Part shown: positions 4,030 to 45,333 of the stretch, in pieces
How positions within the stretch are numbered: position 1 is the first letter of the stretch
Layout of the letters: each line of letters opens with the position of its first letter
Program-made: the position numbers and the translations under genes
Notes under the pieces: model-generated
Database searches by the model: none
Told to the model about the DNA's origin: nothing
Seen by the model: the letters and a program-made list of their open reading frames with translations, nothing else
Assembly (NCBI RefSeq): GCF_965363235.1
Contig: NC_134841.1
Span: 74,589,723 to 74,653,722, forward strand
Length of the DNA stretch: 64,000 nt
Direction: 5' to 3'
From: Mytilus galloprovincialis
Lineage: Eukaryota

Positions 4030-4724
4030 TCTCAACAAACTTCCCAGATTAACAACACATTTGGTACTTCTCGGCATATTTCTACGGCAATGTTCCGAAC
4101 CAGACCTAGCTCATTTTAAAAGATATTGACCTGGACTACTCCTTCCTTAAATATTTTTTTGTGATCCGGGCACCTCGGCCATAGTAAGGATTCAAAGTTG
4201 TGTTTTAACGAACTTTTCATTTCAACCACACAATCGGTACTTTTCGGCATCTACCTACGGCAAAGTTCCGAACCGGACCTAGCTCATTTTAAAGGTATTA
4301 ACCCAAGCTATTCCCCACTTAAATATTTTTCTGGGATCCGGGCCCGTCTGGCCACCACAGAGGTTCAAAGTTGCCAATTTACGTATTTTCCATATCAACC
4401 ACACATTCGGTACTCCTCGACATATCCCTACGGCAAAGTTCCGAACCGGACCTAGCTCATTTCAAAGGTATTGATCCAAGCTATTTGCCAGTCAAATATT
4501 TTTCTGGAATCCGGGCCCGTCTGGCCACCACAGAGGTTCAAAGGTGCCCCTTAACGTAATTTTCCGTATTAACCATATGCATACATTCGGTACTTTTCGG
4601 CATATACCAACGGCAAAGTTCCGAACCGGACCTAGCTCATTTTAAAGGTATTGACCCAAGCTATTCCCCACTTAAATATTTTTCTGGGATCCGGGCCCGT
4701 CTGGCCACCACAGAGGTTCAAAGT
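4030..4724 (+). repeat. Short array (~4 monomers) of the ~175-bp satellite; distal monomers diverged, proximal ones near-identical to the big arrays
   Basis: Repeating cggcaaagttccgaaccggacctagctcatttyaaaggtattgaYccaagctattYcc...ttttctgggatccgggcccgtctggccaccacagaggttcaaag. Overlapping ORFs 4198-4455 and 4371-4559 translate to the same peptides as the ORFs in the large arrays. Confidence 0.85.
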
Positions 4725-5355
4725 CGTTTTAGGGTGGTCACCGTCATTTAAGCAGTCTCTGGTAGGTGTTGATTATTAATTTCTTTTCTTTTTTGGCTTT
4801 CCATAAGTATTTCTATGTATATTTCTATATGTTTCTGAAGTAATTGGATTGTGTTTCATATTTTATATATTAAATTACATCTTTGGTGAATCCTCTGTAA
4901 TGTTTTATTGATAAAAATCTATATAACATAAAGACAAATATACAACTTGTATCAGGGTTTATATTCGAGGACAACGAAAATTTATGGCAGCCTGAAGGGG
5001 TCATAGAATGGTATCTTTTCCCTCAGGCTTTATAGTGATTTTCAACTAAATTTAAATATTGAACCGACGGCTAGCAGTCGGTTGGATATTGAATATTAAT
5101 TATCGAATGTCAAATAAAGGACAGATTGCTTACATACATATTTAAAACGGAATTAAATGCTTTAGAAATTACCAGAAACCGTGAAATTGTCGATTCCGCT
5201 GTTAGATTGCATTTAACTAAGATTTAGCGATTTTTGGAACGTTTGAGTCTCACGCAGTTTTTTGGTTTTTAGACATATCGTCAAAATTGGCTGCTGGAAA
5301 AAAGTAGCTGCTATCTTGATTGGCCGATAAAAGTGGCTGCCAGCTTGAGTCTGGT
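4725..5355 (+). mobile_element. Conserved ~620-bp satellite-flanking module, copy 1 (candidate terminus of a satellite-carrying Helitron/MgE-like element)
   Basis: The same sequence (agtcgt(t/c)ttagggtggtcaccgtcatttaagcagtctctggtag ... gtggctgccagcttgagtctggt) recurs at 44695-45333 (+) and reverse-complemented at 12464-13100. It is always joined to the satellite at the identical junction. It contains the palindrome aaccgacggctagcagtcggtt. Confidence 0.6.
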
Positions 5356-6214
5356 ACAAAATCAAGATATTTTAAAATAGGTGTTCAAACACCCAGTTCA
5401 TTGTTAGATATTAACTTCAAAATCATGATTTCCATCGTAAGAAAAGAAAGAACAATATTATTTACCCGATAAATACAATACATTTGTATTAACCAATTAT
5501 ATATATATATGTTACAGGCATTTTCTAAATTTAGGCCTAATATTGACAGGCATTATACAAAATGACTAAAAATACCTAGTCATTTTGTAAAATGACTAAA
5601 ATTTTGAGACAAAATTCAACAAATTGCCTGTTCAGTTTCAGGCAATTTGTAGAAGAATGATATCGTTGAGATGCATATAACAAAAGTGGACAAAAACAAA
5701 ATATCTTGCTAAGAAAATAACTAATGGTTCGATATAATGAATTTATTCTCCAAAAACCTGCTGGGAAGATTTATATGTCATATATGATGTTTTCTTTTTA
5801 GTAAAACTACGTTAAGTATGCACTGGCTCTGTATTTCAGATAGTAGATAGTTTTTGGTGTGGTTCGTGTTGCTTCTTCATCGAGTTTTATGTTGTGTCAT
5901 GTGTACTATTGTTTGTCTGTTTGTCTTTTTCAGTTTTAGCCATGGCGTTGTCAGTTTATTTTCAATTTGTGATTTTGACTGTCCCTCTGGTATCTTTCGT
6001 CTCTCTTTTTCACTAAAAACTGGGATTAAATTTTTTGAGCCATAGACTTAAACTAAAGACAAAAACAGTTTGTCAATAGTCTAGGCTCACGTCAATTAAA
6101 GTAAGAGGGAAATTACAGCTGCGTATAGACAGGTACGGGTCCAGGATGTGAAAAACGTTCTACGGGCAATCCACTGTGGAGATTGATACAGCAACTTGTA
6201 ATAAAAGAATCCGA

Positions 6215-6367: not shown

Positions 6368-6384
6368 TATAAAATGTATACTTA

Positions 6385-9662: not shown

Positions 9663-11506
9663 CTAACAGCGTCCGTACAATATAGGTCCACTAGCATTCG
9701 CAACTATAATTTTTTCATTCTTTACATCAAACTCGAGTCCAAAAGGATTATTAATTCCGTAATCTTTCCCAAGCAGCTTTCTTGCGTGTTTTCCATCCGA
9801 CGACAGTACAATTATACCATTGTTACCAGAAGAAGCCAGAGGCGGATTTAGGGGGGGGCAGGGGGCCCGGGCCCCCCTTTTTGGGAAAAAATGTGGTTGC
9901 TTATATAGGGAATCACTGAAGCGTGACTGGAGCGGGCCCCCTCTTAGGTCAGTCAGTGGGCCCCCACTTATGAAAATTTCTGGATCCGCCACTGGAAGCA
10001 ATATACACGTTTGAGTCTTTATCTATAGATATCCCTCGCGGACAAAGAACTGATTGATCTTTGTATTCCCACATCTTCTCTCCAGTCAATGAGCAGCATG
10101 TAACTGTATGGTGTAAGCTATTGGTATAAAATATCTTGTCTTTAGATGTTGTTATAAAACTCCAGTTTGTCAAGGTTTCGTCTTTAACCAAGGTAGAAGA
10201 GCAATTATCCAACACATTTACCTTCTGTATACCCAAGCCAGAATTACAGTATAATAAGTGGCCATCTCTGTAACATATACCGAAACAGTAACTGGTTGTC
10301 TTTATCGTGCTTTCAATTGAAATTTGTTAAAATGTTGATGATTGGAATTTGATTGGAAAATTGAAATGTAACAGCAACCGTCTTGTCATCGATACAAGTA
10401 ACATCTAATGGGTAGGAGCTTGACAATGATATGTAATTCTTTAAGGTTCCATCTTTGTTTAAGATCAGAAGACGTTGTTGTTTGTAGCCTAACAGAAAGA
10501 TATCTCCCGTACTAGAAAAAGAACACCCTCTGACACCAGTAAAGTTTTCCAATGTCATGTTGATATCATTAATATTGGTAGTTGTAGGTGATGCATGATG
10601 AATAGTTATAATCTGTGCTTGTTTGTCATTCTCAGTCTGCAAAACCACCAACGGAGAACTCGATTCAACAGATATTGAACAAAATGAAGTTACAGTAGAC
10701 AATACGTCGGATAGCTTGTCCTCAATGTTATAGTTCAAGTCTATCTTCTGTGAACTACCATCCTCAAATAATGACTGCATTAATATTTCATGTTTCTTAA
10801 TTTCTGTTTCAATCATTTTACTCCCAAGAAATGCCTGTAGGTCTGACGCATATTCTTTGACAGCTGACATATTAGTTTGCAATATATCAATATTTTCCGT
10901 ATGTTTAGCAAGTTTTCTCAGTAAATCTTCTATTTGTGCTTTAACTTTCTCTTCTGCAGAATATAAATCCTGATGTATTAGTTGTTCTAACCCGTCAAGG
11001 TGCGCGTTAATTTTATTATGAACCTTTTTTATTTCATCGCAAATTTTCTGCCTTTGATTCTGGATTTCTTCAAGATTTTGTTTCCGATCTTTTACAACTT
11101 TCTCGGCATTTATTTTGATATATTTCAGATTTTCATCAAGACTCTTCAATAAGACTGAAGTCTTTGCCGTTTGTATGACATTCTCCAGCGACAATATCCC
11201 AACACATTCAGCATGGTTGGACTGAATACACAGTGGACAACCGATACTTTCATGTTGCGGACAATACATCTGAAATTTTCTGTCATGCTGTGAACAGTAT
11301 GGTGATATTTTTGCTATTGAGGGAGGTAATTGTTTATAGTTGTCGACAGATATAACATCATGGTTACGTGAGGCTTTCGATGCATTCTGATACTGCAGAC
11401 ATTGAGATCAGAGTCCTTCGTCACATTCAGGGCACCAGTAGTCAGCATTTGTTGTCGTGTGCTGAGACTCACAAATACCACACGAAACTGTGCTCGATGA
11501 TGCCAT
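9663..11506 (-). pseudogene. TRIM-like (B-box1, B-box2, coiled-coil, NHL repeats; no RING) gene carrying three lesions; likely pseudogene
   Basis: Minus-strand frame from ATG at 11506: MASSSTVSCGICESQHTTTNADYWCPECDEGL[TGA]SQCLQYQNASKASRNHDVISVDNYKQLPPSIAKISPYCSQHDRKFQMYCPQHESIGCPLCIQSNHAEC... is B-box1 then B-box2. A long coiled-coil follows (ORF 10313-11269), then NHL-like repeats (..GICYRDGHLLYCNSGLGIQKVNV.., ..GISIDKDSNVYIASSG.., ..NNGIIVLSSDGKHARKLLGKDYGINNPFGLEFDVKNEKIIVANASGPILYGRC*). Lesions: (1) in-frame TGA at 11408-11410 where a B-box zinc-ligand Cys is expected. (2) A 1-nt frameshift near 10313-10326. (3) The MITE at 9836-9995. Confidence 0.6.
9836..9995 (+). mobile_element. MITE insertion (copy B, 160 bp) inside the NHL-repeat coding region of the TRIM-like gene; 3-bp target-site duplication AAG
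   Basis: Element ccagaggcggatttagggggg...cagtcagtgggcccccacttatgaaaatttctggatccgccactgg. It is flanked by aag at 9833-9835 and 9996-9998. Element plus one TSD is 163 nt (3n+1). Removing it fuses the upstream and downstream NHL reading frames exactly (..NVYIASSG|NNGIIVLSSDGK..). Confidence 0.65.
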
Positions 11507-11937: not shown

Positions 11938-12463
11938 ACTTTTGGATAAGATGGGTTTTAGTCAGCACAAACATGTTCACACAAAAGGCAAAGGCGCATA
12001 ATAAAAATCGACCGATAATGAATATCAAAGGGGCATAAGCTACCAACTCAACAATAAAAACAATCGGATCTTTTTTTCAAACATTTATGAAAGTGGAGTA
12101 AAGAAATAATATTTCGCTATTAGCAGTCTGTTTTGTTCAATTAAAGGCTAAAATATATCGCTGATGTATAATTGACTTGCAAGTCAACAGTTCATGCTAA
12201 TTTGGACCTTCGTGGAGATCGGTTGTGCATGTGTTTACCATGTAGTTCATTAATTGAAAGAATGTCAACATTAAAAAGTAAAACAAAGGAGACACCGTCA
12301 CACCTAGTGTTTATTTTTCAGAGTAAAAGATTCAATTGATTGCATGCTTCTTAATTGTCATCTGAATTTTTATCTGCTAAATGACAAAACATAACTTCAG
12401 ACTACCAGGCGCCTGTATCGCTATCTAGCTTTTCAAAACAATCACTGAAAGAGGAATATTTTC

Positions 12464-13100
12464 ACCAGACTCAAGCTGGCAGCCACTTTCATCGGCCAAT
12501 CAAGATAGCAGCCACTTTTTTCCAGCAGCCAATTTTGACGATATGTCTAAAAACCAAAAAACTGCGTGAGGCTCAAACGTTCCAAAAATCGCTAAATCTT
12601 AGTTAAATGCAATCTAACAGCGGAAATCGACAATTTCACGGTTTCTGCTAATTTCTAAAGCATTTCATTCCGTTTTAAATATGTATGTAAGCGATCTGTC
12701 CTTTATTTGACATTCGATAATTGATATTCAATATCCAACCGACTGCTAGCCGTCGGTTCAATATTTCAATTTAGTTGAAAATCACTATAAAGCCTGAGAG
12801 AAAAGATACCATTTTATGACCCCTTCAAGCTGTCATAAATTTTCGTTGTCCTCGAATATAAACCCTGATACAAGTTGTATATTTGTCTTTATGTTATATA
12901 GATTTTTATCAATAAAACATTACAGAGGATTCACCAAAGATGTAATTTAATATATAAAATATGAAACAAAATCCAATTACTCCAGAAACATATAGAAATA
13001 TACATAGAAATACTTATGGAAAGCCAAAAAAAAAAAAAGAAATTAATAGTGAACACCTACCAGAGACTGCTTAAATGACGGTGACCACCCTAAGACGACT
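12464..13100 (-). mobile_element. Satellite-flanking module, copy 2 (reverse complement of 4725-5355)
   Basis: accagactcaagctggcagccacttt...ctaccagagactgcttaaatgacggtgaccaccctaagacgac is the reverse complement of the module at 4725-5355 and 44695-45333. It is joined to the satellite at the same junction. Confidence 0.6.
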
Positions 13101-16100
13101 TTGGACCTCTGTGGTGGCCAGACGGGCCCGGATCCCAGAAAAATATTTAAGTGGCAAATAGCTTGGATCAATACCTTTGAAATGAGCTAGGTCCGGTTCG
13201 GAACTTTGCCGTAGGGATATGTCGAGGAGTACCGAATGTGTGGTTGATATGGAAAATACGTAAATTGGCAACTTTGAACCTCTGTGGTGGCCAGACGGGC
13301 CCGGATCCCAGAAAAATATTTAAGTGGGGAATAGCTTGGGTCAATACCTTTAAAATGAGCTAGGTCCGGTTCGGAACTTTGCCGTTGGTATATGCCGAAA
13401 AGTACCGAATGTATGCATATGGTTAATACGGAAAATTACGTTATGGGGCACCTTTGAACCTCTGTGGTGGCCAGACGGGCCCGGATCCCAGAAACATATT
13501 TAAGTGGCAAATAGCTTGGATCAATACCTTTGAAATGAGCTAGGTCCGGTTCGGAACTTTGCCGTAGGGATATGTCGAGGAGTACCGAATGTGTGGTTGA
13601 TATGGAAAATACGTAAATGGGCATTTTGAAGCTCTGTGGTGGCCAGACGGGCCCGGATCCCAGAAAAATATTTAAGTGGCAAATAGCTTGGATCAATACC
13701 TTTGAAATGAGCTAGGTCCGGTTCGGAACTTTGCCGTAGGGATATGTCGAGGAGTACCGAATGTGTGGTTGATATGGAAAATACGTAAATTGGCAACTTT
13801 GAACCTCTGTGGTGGCCAGACGGGCCCGGATCCCAGAAAAATATTTAAGTGGGGAATAGCTTGGGTCAATACCTTTAAAATGAGCTAGGTCCGGTTCGGA
13901 ACTTTGCCGTTGGTATATGCCGAAAAGTACCGAATGTATGCATATGGTTAATACGGAAAATTACGTTATGGGGCACCTTTGAACCTCTGTGGTGGCCAGA
14001 CGGGCCCGGATCCCAGAAACATATTTAAGTGGCAAATAGCTTGGATCAATACCTTTGAAATGAGCTAGGTCCGGTTCGGAACTTTGCCGTAGGGATATGT
14101 CGAGGAGTACCGAATGTGTGGTTGATATGGAAAATACGTAAATGGGCATTTTGAAGCTCTGTGGTGGCCAGACGGGCCCGGATCCCAGAAAAATATTTAA
14201 GTGGCAAATAGCTTGGATCAATACCTTTGAAATGAGCTAGGTCCGGTTCGGAACTTTGCCGTAGGGATATGTCGAGGAGTACCGAATGTGTGGTTGATAT
14301 GGAAAATACGTAAATTGGCAACTTTGAACCTCTGTGGTGGCCAGACGGGCCCGGATCCCAGAAAAATATTTAAGTGGGGAATAGCTTGGGTCAATACCTT
14401 TAAAATGAGCTAGGTCCGGTTCGGAACTTTGCCGTTGGTATATGCCGAAAAGTACCGAATGTATGCATATAGTTAATACGGAAAATTACGTTATGGGGCA
14501 CCTTTGAACCTCTGTGGTGGCCAGACGGGCCCGGATCCCAGAAACATATTTAAGTGGCAAATAGCTTGGATCAATACCTTTGAAATGAGCTAGGTCCGGT
14601 TCGGAACTTTGCCGTAGGGATATGTCGAGGAGTACCGAATGTGTGGTTGATATGGAAAATACGTAAATGGGCATTTTGAAGCTCTGTGGTGGCCAGACGG
14701 GCCCGGATCCCAGAAAAATATTTAAGTGGCAAATAGCTTGGATCAATACCTTTGAAATGAGCTAGGTCCGGTTCGGAACTTTGCCGTAGGGATATGTCGA
14801 GGAGTACCGAATGTGTGGTTGATATGGAAAATACGTAAATTGGCAACTTTGAACCTCTGTGGTGGCCAGACGGGCCCGGATCCCAGAAAAATATTTAAGT
14901 GGGGAATAGCTTGGGTCAATACCTTTAAAATGAGCTAGGTCCGGTTCGGAACTTTGCCGTTGGTATATGCCGAAAAGTACCGAATGTATGCATATGGTTA
15001 ATACGGAAAATTACGTTATGGGGCACCTTTGAACCTCTGTGGTGGCCAGACGGGCCCGGATCCCAGAAACATATTTAAGTGGCAAATAGCTTGGATCAAT
15101 ACCTTTGAAATGAGCTAGGTCCGGTTCGGAACTTTGCCGTAGGGATATGTCGAGGAGTACCGAATGTGTGGTTGATATGGAAAATACGTAAATGGGCATT
15201 TTGAAGCTCTGTGGTGGCCAGACGGGCCCGGATCCCAGAAAAATATTTAAGTGGCAAATAGCTTGGATCAATACCTTTGAAATGAGCTAGGTCCGGTTCG
15301 GAACTTTGCCGTAGGGATATGTCGAGGAGTACCGAATGTGTGGTTGATATGGAAAATACGTAAATTGGCAACTTTGAACCTCTGTGGTGGCCAGACGGGC
15401 CCGGATCCCAGAAAAATATTTAAGTGGGGAATAGCTTGGGTCAATACCTTTAAAATGAGCTAGGTCCGGTTCGGAACTTTGCCGTTGGTATATGCCGAAA
15501 AGTACCGAATGTATGCATATGGTTAATACGGAAAATTACGTTATGGGGCACCTTTGAACCTCTGTGGTGGCCAGACGGGCCCGGATCCCAGAAACATATT
15601 TAAGTGGCAAATAGCTTGGATCAATACCTTTGAAATGAGCTAGGTCCGGTTCGGAACTTTGCCGTAGGGATATGTCGAGGAGTACCGAATGTGTGGTTGA
15701 TATGGAAAATACGTAAATGGGCATTTTGAAGCTCTGTGGTGGCCAGACGGGCCCGGATCCCAGAAAAATATTTAAGTGGCAAATAGCTTGGATCAATACC
15801 TTTGAAATGAGCTAGGTCCGGTTCGGAACTTTGCCGTAGGGATATGTCGAGGAGTACCGAATGTGTGGTTGATATGGAAAATACGTAAATTGGCAACTTT
15901 GAACCTCTGTGGTGGCCAGACGGGCCCGGATCCCAGAAAAATATTTAAGTGGGGAATAGCTTGGGTCAATACCTTTAAAATGAGCTAGGTCCGGTTCGGA
16001 ACTTTGCCGTTGGTATATGCCGAAAAGTACCGAATGTATGCATATAGTTAATACGGAAAATTACGTTATGGGGCACCTTTGAACCTCTGTGGTGGCCAGA

Positions 16101-31687: not shown

Positions 31688-31733
31688 ACGCCAGACGCGC
31701 GTTTCGTCTACATAAGACTCATCAGTGACGCTC
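31688..31733 (-). ncRNA. Hammerhead ribozyme, minimal type-I topology (copy 1)
   Basis: Minus strand: GAGCGUCA-CUGAUGA-GUC-UUAUGUA-GAC-GAAAC-GCGC-GUC|UGGCGU. Conserved CUGAUGA and GAAA cores are present. Stem II is GUC/GAC. Short helix III is AC/GU. GUC cleavage triplet. Helix I is GCGUCA with UGGCGU (6 bp including 2 G-U pairs). Confidence 0.6.
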
Positions 31734-32039
31734 AGATCAAAATATTTATAAAGCCAAACAAGTACAAAGTTGAAGAGCATTTAGGATCCAAAATTCCAAA
31801 AAGTTGTGCCAAATACGGCTAAGGTAATCTATTCCTGGGATAAGAAAATCCTTAGTTTTTCGAAAAATTCAGTTTTGTAAACGGGAAATTTATAAAAATG
31901 ACCACAATATTGATATTCATGTCAACACCAAAGTGTTGACTACTGGGCTGGTAATACCCGCGGGGACGAAACGTCCACCAGCAGTGGCATCGACCCAGTG
32001 GTGTATATAGTTATCAAAGTACCAGGATTATAATTTTGT

Positions 32040-32085
32040 ACGCCAGACGAGCGTTTCGTCTACTTAAGACTCATCAGTGACGCTC
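32040..32085 (-). ncRNA. Hammerhead ribozyme (copy 2; stem II loop UUAAGUA, helix III loop GCUC)
   Basis: Same core as copy 1, 352 nt away. Compensatory or neutral changes are confined to loops. Confidence 0.55.
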
Positions 32086-32391
32086 ATATCAAAATATTTA
32101 TAAAGCCAAACAAGTACAAAGTTGAAGAGCATTTAGGATCCAAAATTCCAAAAAGTTGTGCCAAATACGGCTAAGGTAATCTATTCCTGGGATAAGAAAA
32201 TCCTTAGTTTTTCGAAAAATTCAGTTTTGTAAACGGGAAATTTATAAAAATGAACACAATATTGATATTCATGTCAACACCGAAGTGTTGACTACTGGGC
32301 TGGTAATACCCTCGGGGACGAAACATCCACCAGCAGTGGCATCGACCCAGTGGTGTAAATAGTTATCAAAGTACCAGGATTATAATTTTGT

Positions 32392-32437
32392 ACGCCAGAC
32401 GCGCGTTTCGTCTACATAAGACTCATCAGTGACGCTC
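32392..32437 (-). ncRNA. Hammerhead ribozyme (copy 3, identical to copy 1)
   Basis: gccagacgcgcgtttcgtctacataagactcatcagtgacgctc on the plus strand is the reverse complement of the ribozyme. Confidence 0.55.
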
Positions 32438-34269
32438 ATATCAAAATATTTATAAAGCCAAACAAGTACAAACTTTTTATCCAACAGTAATGATGTTTAG
32501 TAGCATTGGTTAAATACAACGTGTTTGTGTGAGTTCTATTCTTTTTGATGTTTTTTGAATTTTTAACGGGTACTTTTTTGTATTTTTTGTATTGACTCAC
32601 TCGTAAAATGTACTTTTCTGATCCACCTATTCATGATGTGATTGTGAGAATACAGCTCACGTTAATAATGGCCTTCTTCTGTGCTAGTTTTACTGAAAGG
32701 CGTAGGTAAGACTCAAACATCAGGGATACAATTTATTCATATGAAGGTGTACTTCTACAATATGACTAACGTTCACTCACTTCCATCACGCATGCAAGTT
32801 GCTATGCTTTCTTTTGCCTTTTCTATCATTACTGTTAGTTCAGTGTCTTAGTTGGTTGATTCAGTAATACTAACTTGCCATGCTTGAGTTGACCTTAAAA
32901 GTGGAATCACTGTCACCTGTTGCAAGGTTTTTTTTACCAACTGTACTAGAAGCACCTTCGATGCCTACTTTAAGTTGTCTTCTGAAATTTTACGAATCAA
33001 ATGTATGTAAAGCACTTCGACTTGCCTTAAAAATGAATTAACAAATGGTTCAATAAACACTGTAGTTCTTTTCTACCATCTTTCATCTTAATAACAGGTT
33101 TCTTAGCTATGTCTTGTTGCAGTCCTTTTTCCTTTTTCTTGATCTATATGTAAGGTATACCACGTTTCTTTGCTTTTAGTATTAATTCATTTTTAGTGAA
33201 CACTTCTGTATTGGGTAACACTTGATGCGTGTTGTCTTCAATAAGCTTTACCAACACGTCTTTTGGGTTTATACTATATCCTTTTAACCCCAAATCCTTT
33301 GCCATTCGATGTAATTAGTTTACCGTTATTTGTAAATGACCCGCTGGTATTGTCTTTATAAACCTAGCGCAACCTCTTTATTATGTATAGCATGTATATT
33401 AACTCACAATCTAGGCGTACCCGGTATGTTTTTGTTTGTTAATGCCATTGTTTATTTAATACTTACACACATGTGTCTTTTATGATTATTTTTTTTTTTC
33501 AATTTTACACCCCTAACCACCACTTGTAATTTTTTTAATCTAATGTTTACTAGATGTGAAAAGAAAAATAATGACACGTACTACTACGCGGTTTTCTGTC
33601 TAATAAGGGTATAGGCAGTCGTACTTCTGATGAACGGTCTTTCCAACGTTCTTGTTTCGTAATACAACCCACTACAAGCCCACACCTTACTTGTTACCCG
33701 TTTTATTGACTTCAAGATTAGTAGGTAAGTATCACAAATTATTTCATCCCCACTTGTAGTGTCAATAATTTGGTTCACCTCACTTGTTGGCAGGTCCTTC
33801 CATTTTTGTTTTTCTTTTGTGTCAAAGGTATTCAGATCAATAAAATAATATTGATTATAAGATGCCTTCATAATCCTAATACTTATAAAAATATTCCTAT
33901 ATTCTGGTTTTTTTTTTCATTTTAAAAAACACCACCCCGTACTCCTATTCAAATTCTAACCCTAACACCCCTTACCCTAACACACCTTACTCTAAAACCT
34001 TAAACACCTTTTAAATCAGACTATAACTTTTACACCATGATGCTTATTTACCTGTATAATGTTACGTCATAACTTTTACTTACTAATATGACGTCACTTT
34101 TTTCACTGTCACCTTCCTACTTTCACGTTCACTGTTAATTACTAAAATTGAAAGTGTTGCAGCATTCTCTATTCTACACCACTGGTATGAACCCAGGCTA
34201 TTCACTACTTTTTTTATATAATCCAGAGCCATCTGCATTACAGTGGTTCCGAAATTCATATAACGTATT

Positions 34270-34395
34270 TAACTTACAAACCACATATTCGGAACATCTT
34301 AGCATATCCTTACGGCAAAGTTCCGATTTAATATTTTTCTGGGATCATGGCAATCCTGACCACAATTGGGGTTAAAAGTTGTGCCTTAACATATT
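34270..34395 (+). repeat. Degenerate satellite monomer fragment (edge of array C, separated from it by the BEL/Pao insertion)
   Basis: ccttacggcaaagttccga...atatttttctgggatcatggcaatcctgaccacaattggggttaaaagttgtgccttaac aligns to the satellite monomer. Confidence 0.5.
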
Positions 34396-34424
34396 TTCAT
34401 AATAATCATGTCAGAAAATACACA

Positions 34425-37192
34425 AATACAAACATTATGCTATGGTAACGTTGTTTCCATAACGCTATAGTGAGTGACGTTATTGTATTATTCATTAGCT
34501 ATCATGACGATTAAACGTATATAGAACACACAACGCATTTATTGAGATTTTTTAACATTTATGGTGCCGTGACGGACGTTAAAGGCAATACGTGTCGGCA
34601 ACAGAGCAGCAGTGACTAAGCTATGGATCAAATTCGAGGAGCTGAAAGAGAATCCTGAAAACGTCAAAATGGAGGAATTCAAAGCCACAGAGTATGCCGT
34701 AACCCAGAAAAAGAAGAATATTCATGATTTAAACGAGGAAATGAAAGAAATCCAACACGAGGATCACATTGATCAAGAAATTACAGACTCGGATGAGTAT
34801 ATGTTTGATTTAGACATTAAACTAAAGCAAATACGAAAACTTAAGCAAACAATCAAATCCCCCAACAATAATTCTAATTTAAAAGAAAGTAAACAATGAA
34901 CGCTAACACTGAATGCTATATACCTACATCAAACGCTATTTATACAAACACATCAGCCGTTTACATGCTAAACACTAGAAAACGAATTCCATCGGAGGAA
35001 AATCCTACCGGAAATCAATCAAGCAACTTTATTGGTCCGATTTTACAATCATACAATACTCAGGAAGATTGTTCGTATATACAACCACCAGCCCAACTAC
35101 CAAATGTATTTAGTAATGTAAATCATAGATTATTTTAATTAGATTAGCCACATTTTGACGGGTATGTTTTGCAGTTGAGCACATTTTGGGACTTTTACGA
35201 ATGTACCATACACTAAAATAGTAGCCTTACACCAATACAGAAATTTAGTTATCTGAAAGCCCAGCTTATAAGAACCGCCGCCCAAACCATAGCAGGATTT
35301 ACGCTTACGCACACCAATTATGAGACAGCCGTTTGTTTGCTAAGAGAGAGATTTGGAAACTCACACAATTTTTTAATGATTACATGAAATCACTCATGAG
35401 CTTACCCGCACCGACAAATGATGCATTTAGCTTGAGATCTTACGGAGACAAACTTGAATCATATGTGCGAGGATTAGAGTCACTTTGTCAAACACCTGAG
35501 ATGTATGGTTCGCTTTAGTTTTGGACAAGTTACCGATTGACATGAGAAAATCTATTGCAAGAAAACGCGGGAGATATAACTTGATATTGAAAAATCTACG
35601 AATAGCAATAACTAAAGAGATTGAAATACTTAAAGCTGGCGAAGGAGTCATGAGTTCAGACATATTGTACGCCACTGCACTTTTTTATGGGTACGCAATC
35701 ACATTCATACAAGAGCGAATTCAAAGACACACGTAAGATGGTAAATACACATACATGTATATTTTGTTTAGCTGAGCACTATCCGGCGGAGTGCCCTGAA
35801 GTAACAGACGTAAACATAAGAAATCAAATTGTAAAACAGAAACAGTTATGCTTTAACTGTAAAGGGTCACACTAAGTAGCCGCATGCCACTCTACTGAAC
35901 GATGCAAAAAGTGTAACGGAATACATCATACTAGCATATGTAAAGGAAAAGAGGTAATTCCAGGTATGACACCGCAGCCTACAATACAATAGTCAGCAAT
36001 CAACGTAGTTGAAACACCAAACGAGACTACAGTAATGTATCCATCACATCAGAGTCACGACATTCTCCCGAAAACAACAACTGCACCAGTTGTAAATAAC
36101 GACCAAGAACTAGAAAGTAACATCTTATTTGACGAGGGAGCACAGCCTTCTTCAATTTTATAACTCAGAAATTAACTGATAAATTAGAAATAAATCCTAC
36201 AGAAAAAGTAAGCATTCATCCGTCTGTGATTTGAAATTTATCCCAGAAGGTTCGCAACTTAGACACTGCAACAATACAGTTACAGACCGACACAGGAGAA
36301 AAAGTCCATATCGACACATTCATTGTTCCAGAGATTGCCGTTCCGATTTAAAACAAGATTTCACAGACTACAAGGAACTTTCAACATTTAAACTTAAGTA
36401 CAGAACGTTTCGAAATTGACTTACTCATAGGCACCGACTACTACTGGTAAATTATCGAGGACAGAGTTATAAGAGGAAAAGGACCAATCGTTGTACAGTC
36501 AAAGTTCGCATGTGTGTTATCAGGACTAAACAATAGAAACATCAACCATCCGACAACATCTATAGCTCTGGTAAACGTCATTAAAGACAAGAACACAGCG
36601 AAAAAGGAAAGTCCACGGCAAAGTTGCTATGGAAACATGACCGTTCAGATGATATACCTTCAGGCACGACCGTTGCCAAAAGAAGACCAGAAGACACATC
36701 ACAATGGCTCGTACAAAGTAGATCGCATATGAACCCACTTAAGGAAAATTTCAAAGAAAGTAACTTGCTACCTAGACGAACGAACACACCCTCAACTGGT
36801 AGAGTCAAGAAGCCAAATAGATACAAGAAAGGAACTTACAACGCATAAAGAAAATTACCGCTGAGTGATGCTACAGTAGGCGGCAGAAGAAAAATCCATG
36901 AATGGACTATGAGATAAACTTTAGTTGTGATCAGTTAAGGTTAAGGAACTAGATTATTTTATTTGAGATGGACATAAATTTAAATTTCTTTTATCTATAT
37001 TGTGAACTTACATTTTCTTACAATTTTTCGTTACATACTTCGGAAAATACGCAAGGTACAAACATTATGCTATGGTAACGTTGTAACTATAACGCTATAG
37101 TAAGTGATGTTATTGTATTATTCATTACCATCACTACATTTAAACGTATATAGAAAACACAACGCATTTATTGAGATTCTTCAACAATCTTA
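34425..37192 (+). mobile_element. BEL/Pao LTR-retrotransposon fragment (gag with three CCHC knuckles plus start of A17 protease), degenerate, bounded by ~135-bp direct repeats (34425-34558 and 37058-37192)
   Basis: Gag DUF1759-like motif LKAQLIRTAAQTIAGFTLTHTNYETAVCLLRERFGN (about 35245-35350). Zinc knuckles CIFCLAEHYPAEC, CFNCKGSH..C and CKKCNGIHHTSIC (35750-35940). Protease-like LFDEGAQPSSIL (about 36125) and DLLIGTDYYW (about 36415). Many stops and frameshifts. No RT or integrase. Confidence 0.55.
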
Positions 37193-37214
37193 CATTCGGA
37201 ATTCCTAAGAATAT

Positions 37215-40200
37215 CTTTACGGTAATTTTCGAACCTTTCCAAGCTCATTTCAAAGGTATTGACCCAAGCTATTCCCCACTTAAATATTTTTCTGGGATCC
37301 GGGCCCGTCTGGCCACCACAGAGGTTCAAAGTTGCCAATTTACGTATTTTCCATATCAACCACACATTCGGTACTCCTCGACATATCCCTACGGCAAAGT
37401 TCCGAACCGGACCTAGCTCATTTCAAAGGTATTGATCCAAGCTATTTGCCAGTTAAATATTTTTCTGGGATCCGGGCCCGTCTGGCCACCACAGAGGTTC
37501 AAAGTTGCCCATTTACGTATTTTCCATATCAACAACACATTCGGTACTCCTCGACATATCCCTACGGCAAAGTTCCGAACCGGACCTAGCTCATTTTAAA
37601 GGCATTGACCCAAGCTATTCCCACTTAAATATTTTTCTGGGATCCGGGCCCGTCTGGCCACCACAGAGGTTCAAAGGTGCCCCTTAACGTAATTTTCCGT
37701 ATTAACCATATGCATACATTCGGTACTTTTCGGCATATACCAACGGCAAAGTTCCGAACCGGACCTAGCTCATTTTAAAGGTATTGACCCAAGCTATTCC
37801 CCACTTAAATATTTTTCTGGGATCCGGGCCCGTCTGGCCACCACAGAGGTTCAAAGTTGCCAATTTACGTATTTTCCATATCAACCACACATTCGGTACT
37901 CCTCGACATATCCCTACGGCAAAGTTCCGAACCGGACCTAGCTCATTTCAAAGGTATTGATCCAAGCTATTTGCCAGTTAAATATTTTTCTGGGATCCGG
38001 GCCCGTCTGGCCACCACAGAGGTTCAAAGTTGCCCATTTACGTATTTTCCATATCAACAACACATTCGGTACTCCTCGACATATCCCTACGGCAAAGTTC
38101 CGAACCGGACCTAGCTCATTTTAAAGGCATTGACCCAAGCTATTCCCCACTTAAATATTTTTCTGGGATCCGGGCCCGTCTGGCCACCACAGAGGTTCAA
38201 AGGTGCCCCTTAACGTAATTTTCCGTATTAACCATATGCATACATTCGGTACTTTTCGGCATATACCAACGGCAAAGTTCCGAACCGGACCTAGCTCATT
38301 TTAAAGGTATTGACCCAAGCTATTCCCCACTTAAATATTTTTCTGGGATCCGGGCCCGTCTGGCCACCACAGAGGTTCAAAGTTGCCAATTTACGTATTT
38401 TCCATATCAACCACACATTCGGTACTCCTCGACATATCCCTACGGCAAAGTTCCGAACCGGACCTAGCTCATTTCAAAGGTATTGATCCAAGCTATTTGC
38501 CAGTTAAATATTTTTCTGGGATCCGGGCCCGTCTGGCCACCACAGAGGTTCAAAGTTGCCCATTTACGTATTTTCCATATCAACAACACATTCGGTACTC
38601 CTCGACATATCCCTACGGCAAAGTTCCGAACCGGACCTAGCTCATTTTAAAGGCATTGACCCAAGCTATTCCCCACTTAAATATTTTTCTGGGATCCGGG
38701 ACCGTCTGGCCACCACAGAGGTTCAAAGGTGCCCCTTAACGTAATTTTCCGTATTAACCATATGCATACATTCGGTACTTTTCGGCATATACCAACGGCA
38801 AAGTTCCGAACCGGACCTAGCTCATTTTAAAGGTATTGACCCAAGCTATTCCCCACTTAAATATTTTTCTGGGATCCGGGCCCGTCTGGCCACCACAGAG
38901 GTTCAAAGTTGCCAATTTACGTATTTTCCATATCAACCACACATTCGGTACTCCTCGACATATCCCTACGGCAAAGTTCCGAACCGGACCTAGCTCATTT
39001 CAAAGGTATTGATCCAAGCTATTTGCCAGTTAAATATTTTTCTGGGATCCGGGCCCGTCTGGCCACCACAGAGGTTCAAAGTTGCCCATTTACGTATTTT
39101 CCATATCAACAACACATTCGGTACTCCTCGACATATCCCTACGGCAAAGTTCCGAACCGGACCTAGCTCATTTTAAAGGCATTGACCCAAGCTATTCCCC
39201 ACTTAAATATTTTTCTGGGATCCGGGCCCGTCTGGCCACCACAGAGGTTCAAAGGTGCCCCTTAACGTAATTTTCCGTATTAACCATATGCATACATTCG
39301 GTACTTTTCGGCATATACCAACGGCAAAGTTCCGAACCGGACCTAGCTCATTTTAAAGGTATTGACCCAAGCTATTCCCCACTTAAATATTTTTCTGGGA
39401 TCCGGGCCCGTCTGGCCACCACAGAGGTTCAAAGTTGCCAATTTACGTATTTTCCATATCAACCACACATTCGGTACTCCTCGACATATCCCTACGGCAA
39501 AGTTCCGAACCGGACCTAGCTCATTTCAAAGGTATTGATCCAAGCTATTTGCCAGTTAAATATTTTTCTGGGATCCGGGCCCGTCTGGCCACCACAGAGG
39601 TTCAAAGTTGCCCATTTACGTATTTTCCATATCAACAACACATTCGGTACTCCTCGACATATCCCTACGGCAAAGTTCCGAACCGGACCTAGCTCATTTT
39701 AAAGGCATTGACCCAAGCTATTCCCCACTTAAATATTTTTCTGGGATCCGGGCCCGTCTGGCCACCACAGAGGTTCAAAGGTGCCCCTTAACGTAATTTT
39801 CCGTATTAACCATATGCATACATTCGGTACTTTTCGGCATATACCAACGGCAAAGTTCCGAACCGGACCTAGCTCATTTTAAAGGTATTGACCCAAGCTA
39901 TTCCCCACTTAAATATTTTTCTGGGATCCGGGCCCGTCTGGCCACCACAGAGGTTCAAAGTTGCCAATTTACGTATTTTCCATATCAACCACACATTCGG
40001 TACTCCTCGACATATCCCTACGGCAAAGTTCCGAACCGGACCTAGCTCATTTCAAAGGTATTGATCCAAGCTATTTGCCAGTTAAATATTTTTCTGGGAT
40101 CCGGGCCCGTCTGGCCACCACAGAGGTTCAAAGTTGCCCATTTACGTATTTTCCATATCAACAACACATTCGGTACTCCTCGACATATCCCTACGGCAAA

Positions 40201-43200
40201 GTTCCGAACCGGACCTAGCTCATTTTAAAGGCATTGACCCAAGCTATTCCCCACTTAAATATTTTTCTGGGATCCGGGCCCGTCTGGCCACCACAGAGGT
40301 TCAAAGGTGCCCCTTAACGTAATTTTCCGTATTAACCATATGCATACATTCGGTACTTTTCGGCATATACCAACGGCAAAGTTCCGAACCGGACCTAGCT
40401 CATTTTAAAGGTATTGACCCAAGCTATTCCCCACTTAAATATTTTTCTGGGATCCGGGCCCGTCTGGCCACCACAGAGGTTCAAAGTTGCCAATTTACGT
40501 ATTTTCCATATCAACCACACATTCGGTACTCCTCGACATATCCCTACGGCAAAGTTCCGAACCGGACCTAGCTCATTTCAAAGGTATTGATCCAAGCTAT
40601 TTGCCAGTTAAATATTTTTCTGGGATCCGGGCCCGTCTGGCCACCACAGAGGTTCAAAGTTGCCCATTTACGTATTTTCCATATCAACAACACATTCGGT
40701 ACTCCTCGACATATCCCTACGGCAAAGTTCCGAACCGGACCTAGCTCATTTTAAAGGCATTGACCCAAGCTATTCCCCACTTAAATATTTTTCTGGGATC
40801 CGGGCCCGTCTGGCCACCACAGAGGTTCAAAGGTGCCCCTTAACGTAATTTTCCGTATTAACCATATGCATACATTCGGTACTTTTCGGCATATACCAAC
40901 GGCAAAGTTCCGAACCGGACCTAGCTCATTTTAAAGGTATTGACCCAAGCTATTCCCCACTTAAATATTTTTCTGGGATCCGGGCCCGTCTGGCCACCAC
41001 AGAGGTTCAAAGTTGCAAATTTACGTATTTTCCATATCAACCACACATTCGGTACTCCTCGACATATCCCTACGGCAAAGTTCCGAACCGGACCTAGCTC
41101 ATTTCAAAGGTATTGATCCAAGCTATTTGCCAGTTAAATATTTTTCTGGGATCCGGGCCCGTCTGGCCACCACAGAGGTTCAAAGTTGCCCATTTACGTA
41201 TTTTCCATATCAACAACACATTCGGTACTCCTCGACATATCCCTACGGCAAAGTTCCGAACCGGACCTAGCTCATTTTAAAGGCATTGACCCAAGCTATT
41301 CCCCACTTAAATATTTTTCTGGGATCCGGGACTGTCTGGCCACCACAGAGGTTCAAAGGTGCCCCTTAACGTAATTTTCCGTATTAACCATATGCATACA
41401 TTCGGTACTTTTCGGCATATACCAACGGCAAAGTTCCGAACCGGACCTAGCTCATTTTAAAGGTATTGACCCAAGCTATTCCCCACTTAAATATTTTTCT
41501 GGGATCCGGGCCCGTCTGGCCACCACAGAGGTTCAAAGTTGCCAATTTACGTATTTTCCATATCAACCACACATTCGGTACTCCTCGACATATCCCTACG
41601 GCAAAGTTCCGAACCGGACCTAGCTCATTTCAAAGGTATTGATCCAAGCTATTTGCCAGTTAAATATTTTTCTGGGATCCGGGCCCGTCTGGCCACCACA
41701 GAGGTTCAAAGTTGCCCATTTACGTATTTTCCATATCAACAACACATTCGGTACTCCTCGACATATCCCTACGGCAAAGTTCCGAACCGGACCTAGCTCA
41801 TTTTAAAGGCATTGACCCAAGCTATTCCCCACTTAAATATTTTTCTGGGATCCGGGCCCGTCTGGCCACCACAGAGGTTCAAAGGTGCCCCTTAACGTAA
41901 TTTTCCGTATTAACCATATGCATACATTCGGTACTTTTCGGCATATACCAACGGCAAAGTTCCGAACCGGACCTAGCTCATTTTAAAGGTATTGACCCAA
42001 GCTATTCCCCACTTAAATATTTTTCTGGGATCCGGGCCCGTCTGGCCACCACAGAGGTTCAAAGTTGCCAATTTACGTATTTTCCATATCAACCACACAT
42101 TCGGTACTCCTCGACATATCCCTACGGCAAAGTTCCGAACCGGACCTAGCTCATTTCAAAGGTATTGATCCAAGCTATTTGCCAGTTAAATATTTTTCTG
42201 GGATCCGGGCCCGTCTGGCCACCACAGAGGTTCAAAGTTGCCCATTTACGTATTTTCCATATCAACAACACATTCGGTACTCCTCGACATATCCCTACGG
42301 CAAAGTTCCGAACCGGACCTAGCTCATTTTAAAGGCATTGACCCAAGCTATTCCCCACTTAAATATTTTTCTGGGATCCGGGCCCGTCTGGCCACCACAG
42401 AGGTTCAAAGGTGCCCCTTAACGTAATTTTCCGTATTAACCATATGCATACATTCGGTACTTTTCGGCATATACCAACGGCAAAGTTCCGAACCGGACCT
42501 AGCTCATTTTAAAGGTATTGACCCAAGCTATTCCCCACTTAAATATTTTTCTGGGATCCGGGCCCGTCTGGCCACCACAGAGGTTCAAAGTTGCCAATTT
42601 ACGTATTTTCCATATCAACCACACATTCGGTACTCCTCGACATATCCCTACGGCAAAGTTCCGAACCGGACCTAGCTCATTTCAAAGGTATTGATCCAAG
42701 CTATTTGCCAGTTAAATATTTTTCTGGGATCCGGGCCCGTCTGGCCACCACAGAGGTTCAAAGTTGCCCATTTACGTATTTTCCATATCAACAACACATT
42801 CGGTACTCCTCGACATATCCCTACGGCAAAGTTCCGAACCGGACCTAGCTCATTTTAAAGGCATTGACCCAAGCTATTCCCCACTTAAATATTTTTCTGG
42901 GATCCGGGCCCGTCTGGCCACCACAGAGGTTCAAAGGTGCCCCTTAACGTAATTTTCCGTATTAACCATATGCATACATTCGGTACTTTTCGGCATATAC
43001 CAACGGCAAAGTTCCGAACCGGACCTAGCTCATTTTAAAGGTATTGACCCAAGCTATTCCCCACTTAAATATTTTTCTGGGATCCGGGCCCGTCTGGCCA
43101 CCACAGAGGTTCAAAGTTGCAAATTTACGTATTTTCCATATCAACCACACATTCGGTACTCCTCGACATATCCCTACGGCAAAGTTCCGAACCGGACCTA

Positions 43201-44694
43201 GCTCATTTCAAAGGTATTGATCCAAGCTATTTGCCAGTTAAATATTTTTCTGGGATCCGGGCCCGTCTGGCCACCACAGAGGTTCAAAGTTGCCCATTTA
43301 CGTATTTTCCATATCAACAACACATTCGGTACTCCTCGACATATCCCTACGGCAAAGTTCCGAACCGGACCTAGCTCATTTTAAAGGCATTGACCCAAGC
43401 TATTCCCCACTTAAATATTTTTCTGGGATCCGGGACTGTCTGGCCACCACAGAGGTTCAAAGGTGCCCCTTAACGTAATTTTCCGTATTAACCATATGCA
43501 TACATTCGGTACTTTTCGGCATATACCAACGGCAAAGTTCCGAACCGGACCTAGCTCATTTTAAAGGTATTGACCCAAGCTATTCCCCACTTAAATATTT
43601 TTCTGGGATCCGGGCCCGTCTGGCCACCACAGAGGTTCAAAGTTGCCAATTTACGTATTTTCCATATCAACCACACATTCGGTACTCCTCGACATATCCC
43701 TACGGCAAAGTTCCGAACCGGACCTAGCTCATTTCAAAGGTATTGATCCAAGCTATTTGCCAGTTAAATATTTTTCTGGGATCCGGGCCCGTCTGGCCAC
43801 CACAGAGGTTCAAAGTTGCCCATTTACGTATTTTCCATATCAACAACACATTCGGTACTCCTCGACATATCCCTACGGCAAAGTTCCGAACCGGACCTAG
43901 CTCATTTTAAAGGCATTGACCCAAGCTATTCCCCACTTAAATATTTTTCTGGGATCCGGGCCCGTCTGGCCACCACAGAGGTTCAAAGGTGCCCCTTAAC
44001 GTAATTTTCCGTATTAACCATATGCATACATTCGGTACTTTTCGGCATATACCAACGGCAAAGTTCCGAACCGGACCTAGCTCATTTTAAAGGTATTGAC
44101 CCAAGCTATTCCCCACTTAAATATTTTTCTGGGATCCGGGCCCGTCTGGCCACCACAGAGGTTCAAAGTTGCCAATTTACGTATTTTCCATATCAACCAC
44201 ACATTCGGTACTCCTCGACATATCCCTACGGCAAAGTTCCGAACCGGACCTAGCTCATTTCAAAGGTATTGATCCAAGCTATTTGCCAGTTAAATATTTT
44301 TCTGGGATCCGGGCCCGTCTGGCCACCACAGAGGTTCAAAGTTGCCCATTTACGTATTTTCCATATCAACAACACATTCGGTACTCCTCGACATATCCCT
44401 ACGGCAAAGTTCCGAACCGGACCTAGCTCATTTTAAAGGCATTGACCCAAGCTATTCCCCACTTAAATATTTTTCTGGGATCCGGGCCCGTCTGGCCACC
44501 ACAGAGGTTCAAAGGTGCCCCTTAACGTAATTTTCCGTATTAACCATATGCATACATTCGGTACTTTTCGGCATATACCAACGGCAAAGTTCCGAACCGG
44601 ACCTAGCTCATTTTAAAGGTATTGACCCAAGCTATTCCCCACTTAAATATTTTTCTGGGATCCGGGCCCGTCTGGCCACCACAGAGGTCCAAAG
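37215..44694 (+). repeat. Satellite array: 526-bp higher-order repeat, ~14 copies, same 3-monomer HOR as the minus array; ends at the conserved flank junction
   Basis: ORF track spacing is 526 nt (37857, 38383, 38909 ...). Linked variants (gttgcAaattt plus gggacTgtc) recur at 41013/41186 and 43117/43290. That is a 2104-bp (4-HOR) super-repeat. Confidence 0.92.
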
Positions 44695-45333
44695 TCGTCT
44701 TAGGGTGGTCACCGTCATTTAAGCAGTCTCTGGTAGTTGTTCACTATTAATGTCTTTTCTTTTTTGGCTTTCCATAAGTATTTCTATGTATATTTCTATA
44801 TGTTTCTGGAGTAATTGGATTTTGTTTCATATTTTATATATTAAATTACATCTTTGGTGAATCCTCTGTAATGTTTTATTGATAAAAATCTATATAACAT
44901 AAAGACAAATATGCAACTTGTATCAGGGTTTATATTCGAGGACAACGAAAATTTATGACAGCTTGAAGAGGTCATAGAATGGTATTATTTCCCTCAGGCT
45001 TCATAGTGATAGTGATTGTCAACTAAATTTAAATATTGAACCGACGACTAGCAGTCGGTTGGATATTCAATATCAATTATCGAATGTCAAATAAAGGACA
45101 GACCGCTTACATACATATTTAAAACGGAATGAAATGCTTTAGAAATTAGCAGAAACCGTGAAATTGTCGATTTCCGCTGTTAGATTGCATTTAACTAAGA
45201 TTTAGCGATTTTTGGAACGTTTGAGCCTCACGCAGTTTTTTGGTTTTTAGACATATCGTCAAAATTGGCTGCTGGAAAAAAGTGGCTGCTATCTTGATTG
45301 GCCGATAAAAGTGGCTGCCAGCTTGAGTCTGGT
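44695..45333 (+). mobile_element. Satellite-flanking module, copy 3
   Basis: Near-identical to 4725-5355. Diverges from the other copies immediately after ...gcttgagtctggt. Confidence 0.6.

Follow-up and report, generated by a model that had tools for sequence, protein, structure and literature searches.

A 32.9-kb presence/absence variant in the mussel Mytilus galloprovincialis with inverted satellite-carrying ends, probably a foldback-like element

In the foldback element Tetris of Drosophila virilis, a flanking domain of up to 866 bp is combined with tandem repeats of 220 bp, the expansion of which gives rise to satellite arrays (Dias et al., 2014, PMC4079207). In bivalves, satellites linked to transposons have until now been ascribed to elements derived from Helentrons, in which the central arrays are short, and pearl from Crassostrea virginica, MgE from Mytilus galloprovincialis, DTC84 from Donax, and Cg_HINE from C. 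gigas are now regarded as non-autonomous Helentrons (PMC7492417; PMC3879986). A GTCC-type microsatellite is the hallmark of the left flank in such bivalve HINE/Helentron elements (PMC7492417). Here, a stretch of 64,000 nucleotides from M. galloprovincialis (assembly GCF_965363235.1, contig NC_134841.1, positions 74,589,723 to 74,653,722 of the forward strand; in the following called the window) was analyzed, in which three arrays of a ~173-bp satellite each adjoin a copy of the same non-satellite module of ~635 bp. According to the original prediction, which was made from the sequence alone, this satellite is carried by a mobile element of the Helitron, Helentron, or MgE-like type. Carriage by a mobile element was supported by a sharp terminus shared among the copies and by an insertion that is absent in M. 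edulis, whereas the proposed type was contradicted by inverted ends and by a 4-bp duplication of AATA.

The M. edulis DNA around the homologue of a B-box/NHL protein encoded in the window (OY782959.1:70,495,813-70,517,024, locus L002) was aligned with the window. Positions 1-8822 of L002 correspond to window positions 54255-45334 with 96-98.5% identity, and positions 8819-13770 correspond to window positions 12458-6843 with 93-99% identity. The M. edulis chromosome runs directly from 45334 to 12458, with a 4-bp overlap and with collinear flanks of ~9 kb and ~5.6 kb, and therefore positions 12459-45333 (32,875 bp) constitute one block that is absent from the reference. The empty site in M. edulis, GAGGAATACTTGTG (...CACTGAAAGAGGAATACTTGTGCTAAATGG...), contains a single AATA. 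In the junction alignment the filled site reads GAGGAATA/TTTTC-ACCAGACTC...GAGTCTGGT/AATACTTGTG, where slashes mark the boundaries, with ...GAGGAATA/TTTTC/ACCAGACTCAAGCTGG... at the left junction of the window and ...CCAGCTTGAGTCTGGT/AATACTTGTG... at the right one. The right boundary of the block is located exactly at the end of one module and the left boundary 5 bp from the end of another. A 9-bp imperfect duplication (AATATTTTC versus AATACTTGT) was also considered and was rejected, as agreement over the five positions past AATA is no higher than expected by chance and the right copy is the same as the empty site.

Read from left to right, the block is composed of a module with array 2, an interior, and array 3 with a module. 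The two outer modules are in opposite orientation and 96.4% identical to each other, and inward of each the same satellite follows, forming a left arm of 16.2 kb (12464-28703) and a right arm of 8.1 kb (37187-45333) within the total of 32.9 kb. These results show that, compared with the M. edulis reference, 12459-45333 forms one presence/absence variant, bounded by AATA and with inverted ends made of module and satellite, and that arrays 2 and 3 are not two loci but arms of the same structure. That these arrays are the ends of a single insertion, and that they have a higher-order repeat (HOR) organization, goes beyond the original prediction, in which arrays 1 and 2 had been regarded as the key inverted pair. 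Arrays 1 and 2 are indeed inverted, with module ends 7,108 bp apart, but the emphasis was misplaced, as it is arrays 2 and 3 that bound one element. The arms are not an assembly fold-back artefact, because the modules differ by 2.8-4.2%, the arm lengths are unequal, and the interior is unique. Allelic flanks differ by ~1-2% and the arms by ~3%, which weakly suggests that the arms might already have diverged when the block arrived.

The three copies of the module present in the window, detected by BLAST, are pairwise 95.3-96.4% identical. As had been predicted, all three arrays stop at the same monomer position and each abuts the module, the common junction being ...CCACAGAGGTYCAAAGT/CGTYTTAGGG, and all three modules end in ...GCTTGAGTCTGGT (...GGCTGCCAGCTTGAGTCTGGT), with no similarity between the flanks beyond this point. 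The exact terminus is thus shared by the third copy, which belongs to array 1 and is located at a different site, and this argues for the end of a mobile element. The last 140-240 bp are the best-conserved stretch of the module. All nine matches to the motif AAAAKTGGCTGC in the window, versus 0.28 expected, fall into the last 75 nt of the modules, and trios of this motif are found at 5283-5340 and 12479-12536 in addition to the one listed in Table 1. The motifs appear to resemble the subterminal transposase binding-site repeats of many cut-and-paste transposons. A 22-bp palindrome reported earlier for the module was recovered as a near-palindrome in all copies, and together with its flanks it folds better than 200 of 200 shuffled sequences (z -3.6 to -4.5). 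Near the 3' end of the module no hairpin was detected, the last 150 nt having a z of +1.05 with 178 of 200 shuffles folding as well. In an alignment, the module copies diverge by 2.8-4.2% and the proximal a- and b-type monomers of the copies by 1.4-2.3%. The impression that proximal monomers are far better conserved than modules was weakened by this proper alignment (Fisher p 0.015, 0.43, and 0.19).

When the whole window was searched in both orientations for the 16-nt terminus with up to 3 mismatches, only the three module ends and positions 3830-3845 were found, with 0.26 matches expected. The latter match is inverted relative to the module end of array 1, is located 204 bp upstream of array 1, and is a candidate left terminal inverted repeat (TIR). 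The third copy therefore has its own short inverted terminus in addition to the shared one. With a 16-nt TIR, a left arm of ~200 bp, four monomers, and a right arm of 631 bp, the array 1 copy (3830-5355) looks like a complete small element of ~1.5 kb that is separate from the large insertion. Its left arm was also compared with the sequence beside the distal end of array 2, and a weak alignment was obtained (z 3.7, with 1 of 200 shuffles as good). In this possible remnant of a left arm (28704-28807) no match to the 16-nt TIR was detected at up to 3 mismatches, and between the inner flanks of the large element no inverted homology was found.

With the period limit of the Tandem Repeats Finder (TRF) run set to 500 bp, a unit of ~172-173 bp was detected in three arrays (4051-4724, 13098-28686, and 37242-44695), and wider limits were obtained from a monomer profile (4034-4724 on the plus strand, 13099-28703 on the minus strand, and 37177-44694 on the plus strand). 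The three arrays form blocks of 46% G+C with opposite GC skew. After cutting at a fixed anchor, monomer lengths were seen to cycle as 180-173-172 in array 2 and as 180-173-173 in array 3, and the true period of both arrays is a three-monomer HOR of 180 + 173 + 172/173 bp = 525/526 bp, which was missed by TRF because the maximum period was 500. Copies of the HOR are only 0-3 positions away from their own consensus in 28 of 29 cases in array 2 and in 14 of 14 cases in array 3. Between the two consensus sequences there are 12 fixed differences, nine of them in the middle monomer, and therefore each array was amplified separately from a slightly different trimer. The arms thus have arrays of different lengths with arm-specific HOR variants, each arm carrying its own, separately amplified HOR.

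At its inner end array 2 contains three degenerate monomers. The last monomer before the module is of the 180-bp b type in arrays 1 and 3, whereas array 2 continues for one additional monomer, of the a type, up to the module junction. The module-adjacent monomer of arrays 2 and 3 contains GGTCC instead of GGTTC, a variant that is not found in the HOR consensus. Both the phase of the array ends and this variant fit an unequal exchange within the terminal monomer. The contrast between degenerate distal ends and homogenized proximal units that had been described before was confirmed, as distal monomers show 75-93% identity to the consensus (7-25% divergence) and module-proximal repeat units show 0-3 differences per 525 bp. 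Also, the expected BamHI and ApaI sites are present in the monomer as GGATCC and GGGCCC, and with monomers of 172-180 bp containing GGGCCC the satellite has the format of an ApaI satellite. It may be the Mytilus ApaI satellite studied by Martinez-Lage and co-workers, with ~173 bp and an ApaI site in Mytilus, an identity to be taken as a lead only. The monomer profile did not detect the module as a degenerate monomer. Readings of the repeats as a metazoan retrozyme with a hammerhead or as carrying the head of a short interspersed element (SINE) were rejected, as no corresponding Rfam match reached the gathering score over the window, no Rfam match was obtained at E<=1 over one HOR plus module, no tRNA genes were found in a search of the window, and no tRNA-like sequence was seen in monomer or module.

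We consider it probable that 12459-45333 is a foldback-like or composite TIR element, the basic unit of which would be non-autonomous with short TIRs, and that cut-and-paste transposition was followed by amplification within the arms. The basic unit would consist of a 16-nt TIR, a left arm of ~100-200 bp, a few 173-bp core repeats, and a right arm of ~635 bp in which three AAAAKTGGCTGC motifs precede a terminal copy of this 16-nt TIR. In short units the left TIR would start with ACCAGACTCAAG..., and array 1 (3830-5355) would represent one basic unit with four monomers. The large element would be made of two such units in inverted arrangement, with their right arms outward, enclosing ~8.5 kb of old non-coding DNA, namely a decayed DNA-polymerase pseudogene and a nested remnant with long terminal repeats (LTR). 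Integration would have been carried out by a transposase of the cut-and-paste type acting on the two outer termini, an enzyme that is not encoded in the window. A three-monomer block would then have been amplified in place in each arm by unequal exchange or replication slippage, so that one arm now has 29 copies (15.6 kb) and the other 14 (7.5 kb), and unequal exchange would also have replaced the module-adjacent monomer of array 2. Such an element would both carry satellite arrays to new sites and host their expansion.

The closest described architecture is that of Tetris with its TIR-220 satellite (PMC4079207), although there is no sequence relation and the hosts are an insect and a bivalve. 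In both cases, a long TIR is formed by an outer unique domain (at most 866 bp in Tetris, ~635 bp here) followed inward by a variable number of ~200-bp repeats, the middle is non-coding, internal repeats have been amplified into homogeneous kb-scale arrays, and arrays can have two flanking domains. Short derivatives sharing only the termini are also found in both, DAIBAM in the case of Tetris and the 1.5-kb array 1 unit in the case of the mussel locus. In contrast to Tetris, the duplication is 4 bp and not 8-10 bp, the arrays within the intact element reach 15.6 and 7.5 kb and are organized as three-monomer HORs whereas the TIRs of Tetris reach 1.7 kb, five additional bases are present at one end, and the structure is seen here as a dated presence/absence variant.

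Similarities also exist to the Drosophila FB (foldback) elements and to Galileo of the P superfamily, the TIRs of which are internally repetitive, of unequal length, and prone to ectopic recombination and inversions. Giant composites flanked by FB elements illustrate that two inverted ends can mobilize large intervening DNA. Here, long TIRs make up most of the element, an outer 635-bp domain is followed by inner repeats (~90, 43, or 4 per copy), and there is a target-site duplication with an empty site in another genome (4 bp, with TTTTC at one end). The repeat unit has 173 bp, in contrast to 10-31 bp in FB and ~100-140 bp in Galileo, and the duplication has 4 bp instead of the 9 bp of FB and the 7 bp of Galileo. 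Unlike FB-NOF and Galileo, for which transposases are known, none was identified here. By analogy, the element would work like a foldback or composite TIR element and would not be a member of any named family.

Table 1. Positions of the features discussed, in coordinates of the 64-kb window.
Feature	Position	Strand	Remarks
Decayed DNA-polymerase pseudogene X	406..3682	-	148 bp upstream of array 1 unit
Candidate left TIR of array 1 unit, ACCAAACTCAAGGTGG	3830..3845	+	14/16 match to reverse complement of module terminus
Left arm of array 1 unit, non-satellite	3846..4033	+	between left TIR and first monomer
Array 1	4034..4724	+	4 monomers: 2 degenerate, then a-type (173 bp) and b-type (180 bp)
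Module copy 1 (right arm of array 1 unit)	4725..5355	+	ends ...GCTTGAGTCTGGT; 631 bp
B-box/NHL (TRIM-like) host gene, outside element	9663..11269	-	between array 1 unit and large insertion
Left AATA target-site duplication copy	12455..12458		empty site has single AATA
Five extra bases TTTTC, element terminus or filler	12459..12463		between duplication and left module end; absent from empty site
Module copy 2, outer domain of left TIR of 32.9-kb insertion	12464..13098	-	
Array 2	13099..28703	-	~90 monomers including 29 copies of 525-bp three-monomer HOR
Possible left-arm remnant of array 2 unit	28704..28807	-	starts ACCAAAC; weak alignment to array 1 left arm
Decayed DNA-polymerase pseudogene X' in insertion	29976..33304	-	collinear with X, identity 72-80%
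Old degenerate start of array 3	34183..34408	+	nhmmer matches, E 1e-10 to 6e-3; sequence read
Nested LTR-like retroelement remnant	34409..37186	+	2.8 kb; ~147-bp direct terminal repeats, 88% identical
Array 3	37187..44694	+	~43 monomers including 14 copies of 526-bp three-monomer HOR
Module copy 3, outer domain of right TIR of 32.9-kb insertion	44695..45333	+	
22-bp near-palindrome AACCGACGGCTAGCAGTCGGTT	45038..45059	+	~285 bp from terminus; in other two modules too
Three subterminal direct motifs AAAAKTGGCTGC	45261..45318	+	spacing 17 and 29 nt
Right AATA duplication copy	45334..45337		

In the interior of the block, X' is a counterpart of pseudogene X, which is located outside the block. Both X and X' are frame-shifted, and a stitched translation matches Mytilus proteins named DNA-directed DNA polymerase. 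In a Pfam search with the polymerase fragments no match was obtained even at E<=10, and the identity as polymerase therefore rests on the named homologues. The same remnant is found in the same orientation upstream of two of the three units, at 148 bp in the case of array 1 and at ~880 bp in the case of array 3. X' contains a 352-bp unit repeated 2.3 times in tandem with 97% identity (31654-32472), and as this unit is also present in locus L003 of M. edulis and in locus L001 of M. galloprovincialis (80-94%), it is a dispersed repeat, similar to a SINE or to a miniature inverted-repeat transposable element, that has become locally tandem. The nested LTR-like remnant has a gag-like open reading frame (ORF) with a CCHC-like motif and a DUF1759 match of E 6e-5, below the Pfam cut-off. 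When 34409-37186 is excised from the sequence, monomer-like sequence is restored, with AATC on both sides as an apparent target duplication, and therefore an LTR-type insertion split the old start of array 3. About 180 bp before this old start, at 33959-33999, there are degenerate telomere-like repeats containing CCCTAA (ACCCTAACACCCCTT, 2.7 copies). As no transposase-like ORF was found in the large element, it is non-autonomous.

Among related DNA elsewhere in Mytilus, a DNA-polymerase gene related to X adjoins a gene for a double-jelly-roll capsid-like protein (PF21738) in M. edulis (locus L004, CAJPWZ010000704.1, 10001-14997). This neighborhood suggests that the polymerase remnants may derive from Polinton/Maverick-like elements.

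Several points weigh against the proposed foldback-like element. Divergence is unevenly distributed, amounting to 12% for the LTR pair, 20-28% for X versus X', and 7-25% for distal monomers and to only ~3-4% for the modules, and the interior therefore looks older than the termini, for which gene conversion has to be added to the model. Arm-to-arm or ectopic gene conversion of the module and the proximal monomers would fit this pattern, as would an older segmental duplication of X together with the unit. The latter is also hinted at by the presence of X and X' beside the units of arrays 1 and 3. The adjacency could have arisen by an old segmental duplication after which the unit ends were converted, or from a preference in insertion. 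Neither an autonomous copy nor a transposase was found, the 4-bp duplication is shorter than in FB, Tetris, and Galileo (7-10 bp), and a single two-ended insertion at one locus carries the finding. Upstream of array 3 a conserved left arm was not detected, that of array 2 is weakly supported (z 3.7), and the array 1 unit has no recognizable target duplication. The extreme homogeneity of the HORs may partly come from assembly polishing. Ten Mytilus loci comprising 227 kb, which were reached through homologues of the B-box/NHL protein and of the polymerase, contained no module, satellite, 16-nt terminus, or nested LTR element, and a protein search with conceptual translations of frames from satellite, junction, and module gave 0 matches. 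Exact searches with the module end and the satellite core in JGI metagenome contigs, and with the satellite core in IMG/VR viral and in bacterial and archaeal genome contigs, also gave 0 matches, these collections being without usable mussel DNA.

Some of these points would be accounted for by a structural variant that is not a transposon, in which a 32.9-kb segment with an inverted duplication was joined at a break by end joining or by a replication-template switch, and the end of the module would then be the limit of homology for recombination or conversion. The left junction, with a 4-bp overlap and the five untemplated-looking bases TTTTC, is typical of microhomology-mediated joining with filler and is compatible with such an insertion. 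The missing transposase, the lack of other copies in the 227 kb of Mytilus loci, and the segmental duplication suggested by X and X' agree with this explanation as well. Presence/absence variation is extensive in Mytilus genomes, which would also make such a variant less exceptional. However, three copies end at the same base although their flanks are unrelated, the insertion is bounded precisely by a module end on one side and, on the other, by a position no more than 5 bp from one, the array 1 copy possesses a 16-nt inverted terminus that matches, and the subterminal motif triplets resemble transposase binding sites. On this evidence, we consider a non-transposon origin unlikely.

Another possibility is an ancestral block that was lost from the M. 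edulis reference by a precise deletion or excision, the three units of array and module being old paralogues kept similar by gene conversion. The age of the interior, as judged from the LTR pair, from X versus X', and from the degenerate distal monomers, points in this direction, and the 4-bp repeat could mediate a deletion. However, the deletion would need endpoints no more than 5 bp from one module end and exactly at the other, and the remaining site is a single clean AATA without footprint, which makes an ancestral block improbable.

The array 1 unit also shares the layout of bivalve Helentron-type elements, that is, a left arm, a few core repeats (~160-170 bp in those elements, four monomers of 173-180 bp here), and a right arm, with a repeat orientation that is fixed relative to the arms (the same in 3 of 3 copies), with core repeats related to classical satellites, and with short inverted motifs at the ends. 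If it were a non-autonomous element derived from a Helitron or Helentron (HINE, similar to pearl, MgE, or DTC84), the satellite would correspond to the central repeats, which in bivalve elements form short arrays (PMC7492417; PMC3879986) as in array 1, and it would have moved by rolling-circle transposition. The palindrome in the right arm and the module end ...CTGG-T, similar to a Helitron CTRR end followed by T, agree with this explanation. The original prediction had raised the question of a Helitron-like end at ...CTGGT with insertion between A and T. From the empty site, however, it is evident that the final T belongs to the insert and that AATA was duplicated, whereas a canonical Helitron has CTRR followed by a host T with A/T insertion and no duplication, and the TT (AA) target of HINE elements is not found either. 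The insertion has the same 3' module at both ends in inverted orientation, an arrangement that an asymmetric rolling-circle element cannot use, and the array 1 unit has a 14/16 TIR where canonical Helitrons lack TIRs and have asymmetric 5'-TC and 3' ends. The GC-rich hairpin of Helitrons 10-20 nt before the 3' end is missing, as is the palindrome at the very 3' end of HINE elements, the sole strong palindrome lying ~285 bp inside and the terminal 150 nt being unstructured. No microsatellite was found by TRF or by reading the junctions at either end of any array. In contrast to bivalve Helentron-type elements, the right arm is ten times longer (635 bp versus ~60 bp in Cg_HINE), the inverted motif is terminal at both ends, and a composite with two inverted right arms was transposed or inserted as a whole. 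A Helentron origin of the block thus has very little to recommend it. That the block could be a decayed Polinton/Maverick-type element, with TIRs that acquired the satellite and with the polymerase remnant as an original gene, is hardly credible in spite of the pseudogenes, one within the insertion and one next to the array 1 unit, and of the capsid-like neighbor of the related polymerase gene in L004, as the duplication has 4 bp where 6 bp would be expected, remnants of integrase, ATPase, protease, or capsid genes were not seen with the decayed polymerase, the polymerase remnants have diverged by 20-28% versus 3-4% for the modules, and a separate TIR belongs to the array 1 unit, 148 bp outside X.

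With the foldback-like element as the preferred reading, the locus would differ from the known bivalve cases, as the satellite carrier would be of a different type, with kb-scale, freshly amplified HOR arrays, inverted ends, a 4-bp duplication, and subterminal motifs. Through the comparison with M. edulis, the whole 33-kb structure was caught as an insertion beside a B-box/NHL immune-type gene. It therefore offers a testable case for arrays that reach new chromosomal sites in one step and expand inside the inverted repeats of a transposon, and for a contribution of giant repeat-bounded blocks to presence/absence variation in mussels. We tentatively raise the possibility, which in our view is somewhat doubtful, that Mytilus has a family of foldback-type transposons that are not related to Helentrons and have a classical mussel satellite in their ends, and that composites of this family, tens of kb long and with 15-kb HOR arrays, are still moving or segregating as presence/absence variants. 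If such a family exists, transposition would be a direct one-step route by which full-size satellite arrays are seeded near genes, and its elements would contribute to the extensive hemizygosity of mussel genomes. With inverted repeats of 16 kb and 8 kb and a third inverted copy 7 kb away, the locus could also plausibly give rise to inversions around the gene.

The gene between arrays 1 and 2 had been described as TRIM-like, and its best Mytilus matches place it in the B-box/NHL family. Its ORF at 10313-11269 on the minus strand is 95% identical to a protein from M. galloprovincialis and 92% identical to a protein from M. edulis. The homologues form a large Mytilus family with the names 'B box-type domain-containing', 'TRIM2_3', and 'wech-like', and Pfam detects B-box and NHL domains in them. 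Five paralogues are located on the same M. edulis chromosome at a distance of 1.7-3.6 Mb. A second M. galloprovincialis sequence, contig UYJE01006536.1 (L001), follows the window in collinear order only at 5955-11829, where the B-box/NHL gene is located, and is unrelated on both sides. Being structurally different beyond this region, it cannot polarize either insertion, and as L001, L002, and the window all diverge in layout, the structure of the locus differs in all three genomes compared.

At 14421-21212 of L002, corresponding to window position ~6843, there is a gene call of 1369 amino acids with matches to MULE transposase, ZSWIM RNaseH-like, and Peptidase_C48 domains, which the window does not have and which is a second presence/absence difference at the locus. 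Between the array 1 unit and the B-box/NHL gene, a 47-bp tandem repeat with 3.9 copies and 95% matches occupies 6384-6567. Further along the window, an AT-rich minisatellite with a unit of 33 bp (consensus AGAAATCGTTATTATTGTCCCTGTAACATATTT, 40 copies, ~89% matches, 58579-59896) is unrelated to the 173-bp satellite. A (GGAC)n microsatellite with 20 copies (57550-57629) is contained in a dispersed repeat (57354-57654), which is also present in inverted orientation at 52337-52592 (87-88% identical) and in L002 of M. edulis. As a GTCC-type microsatellite marks the left flank of HINE elements, genuine Helentron-type elements may be located elsewhere in the window.

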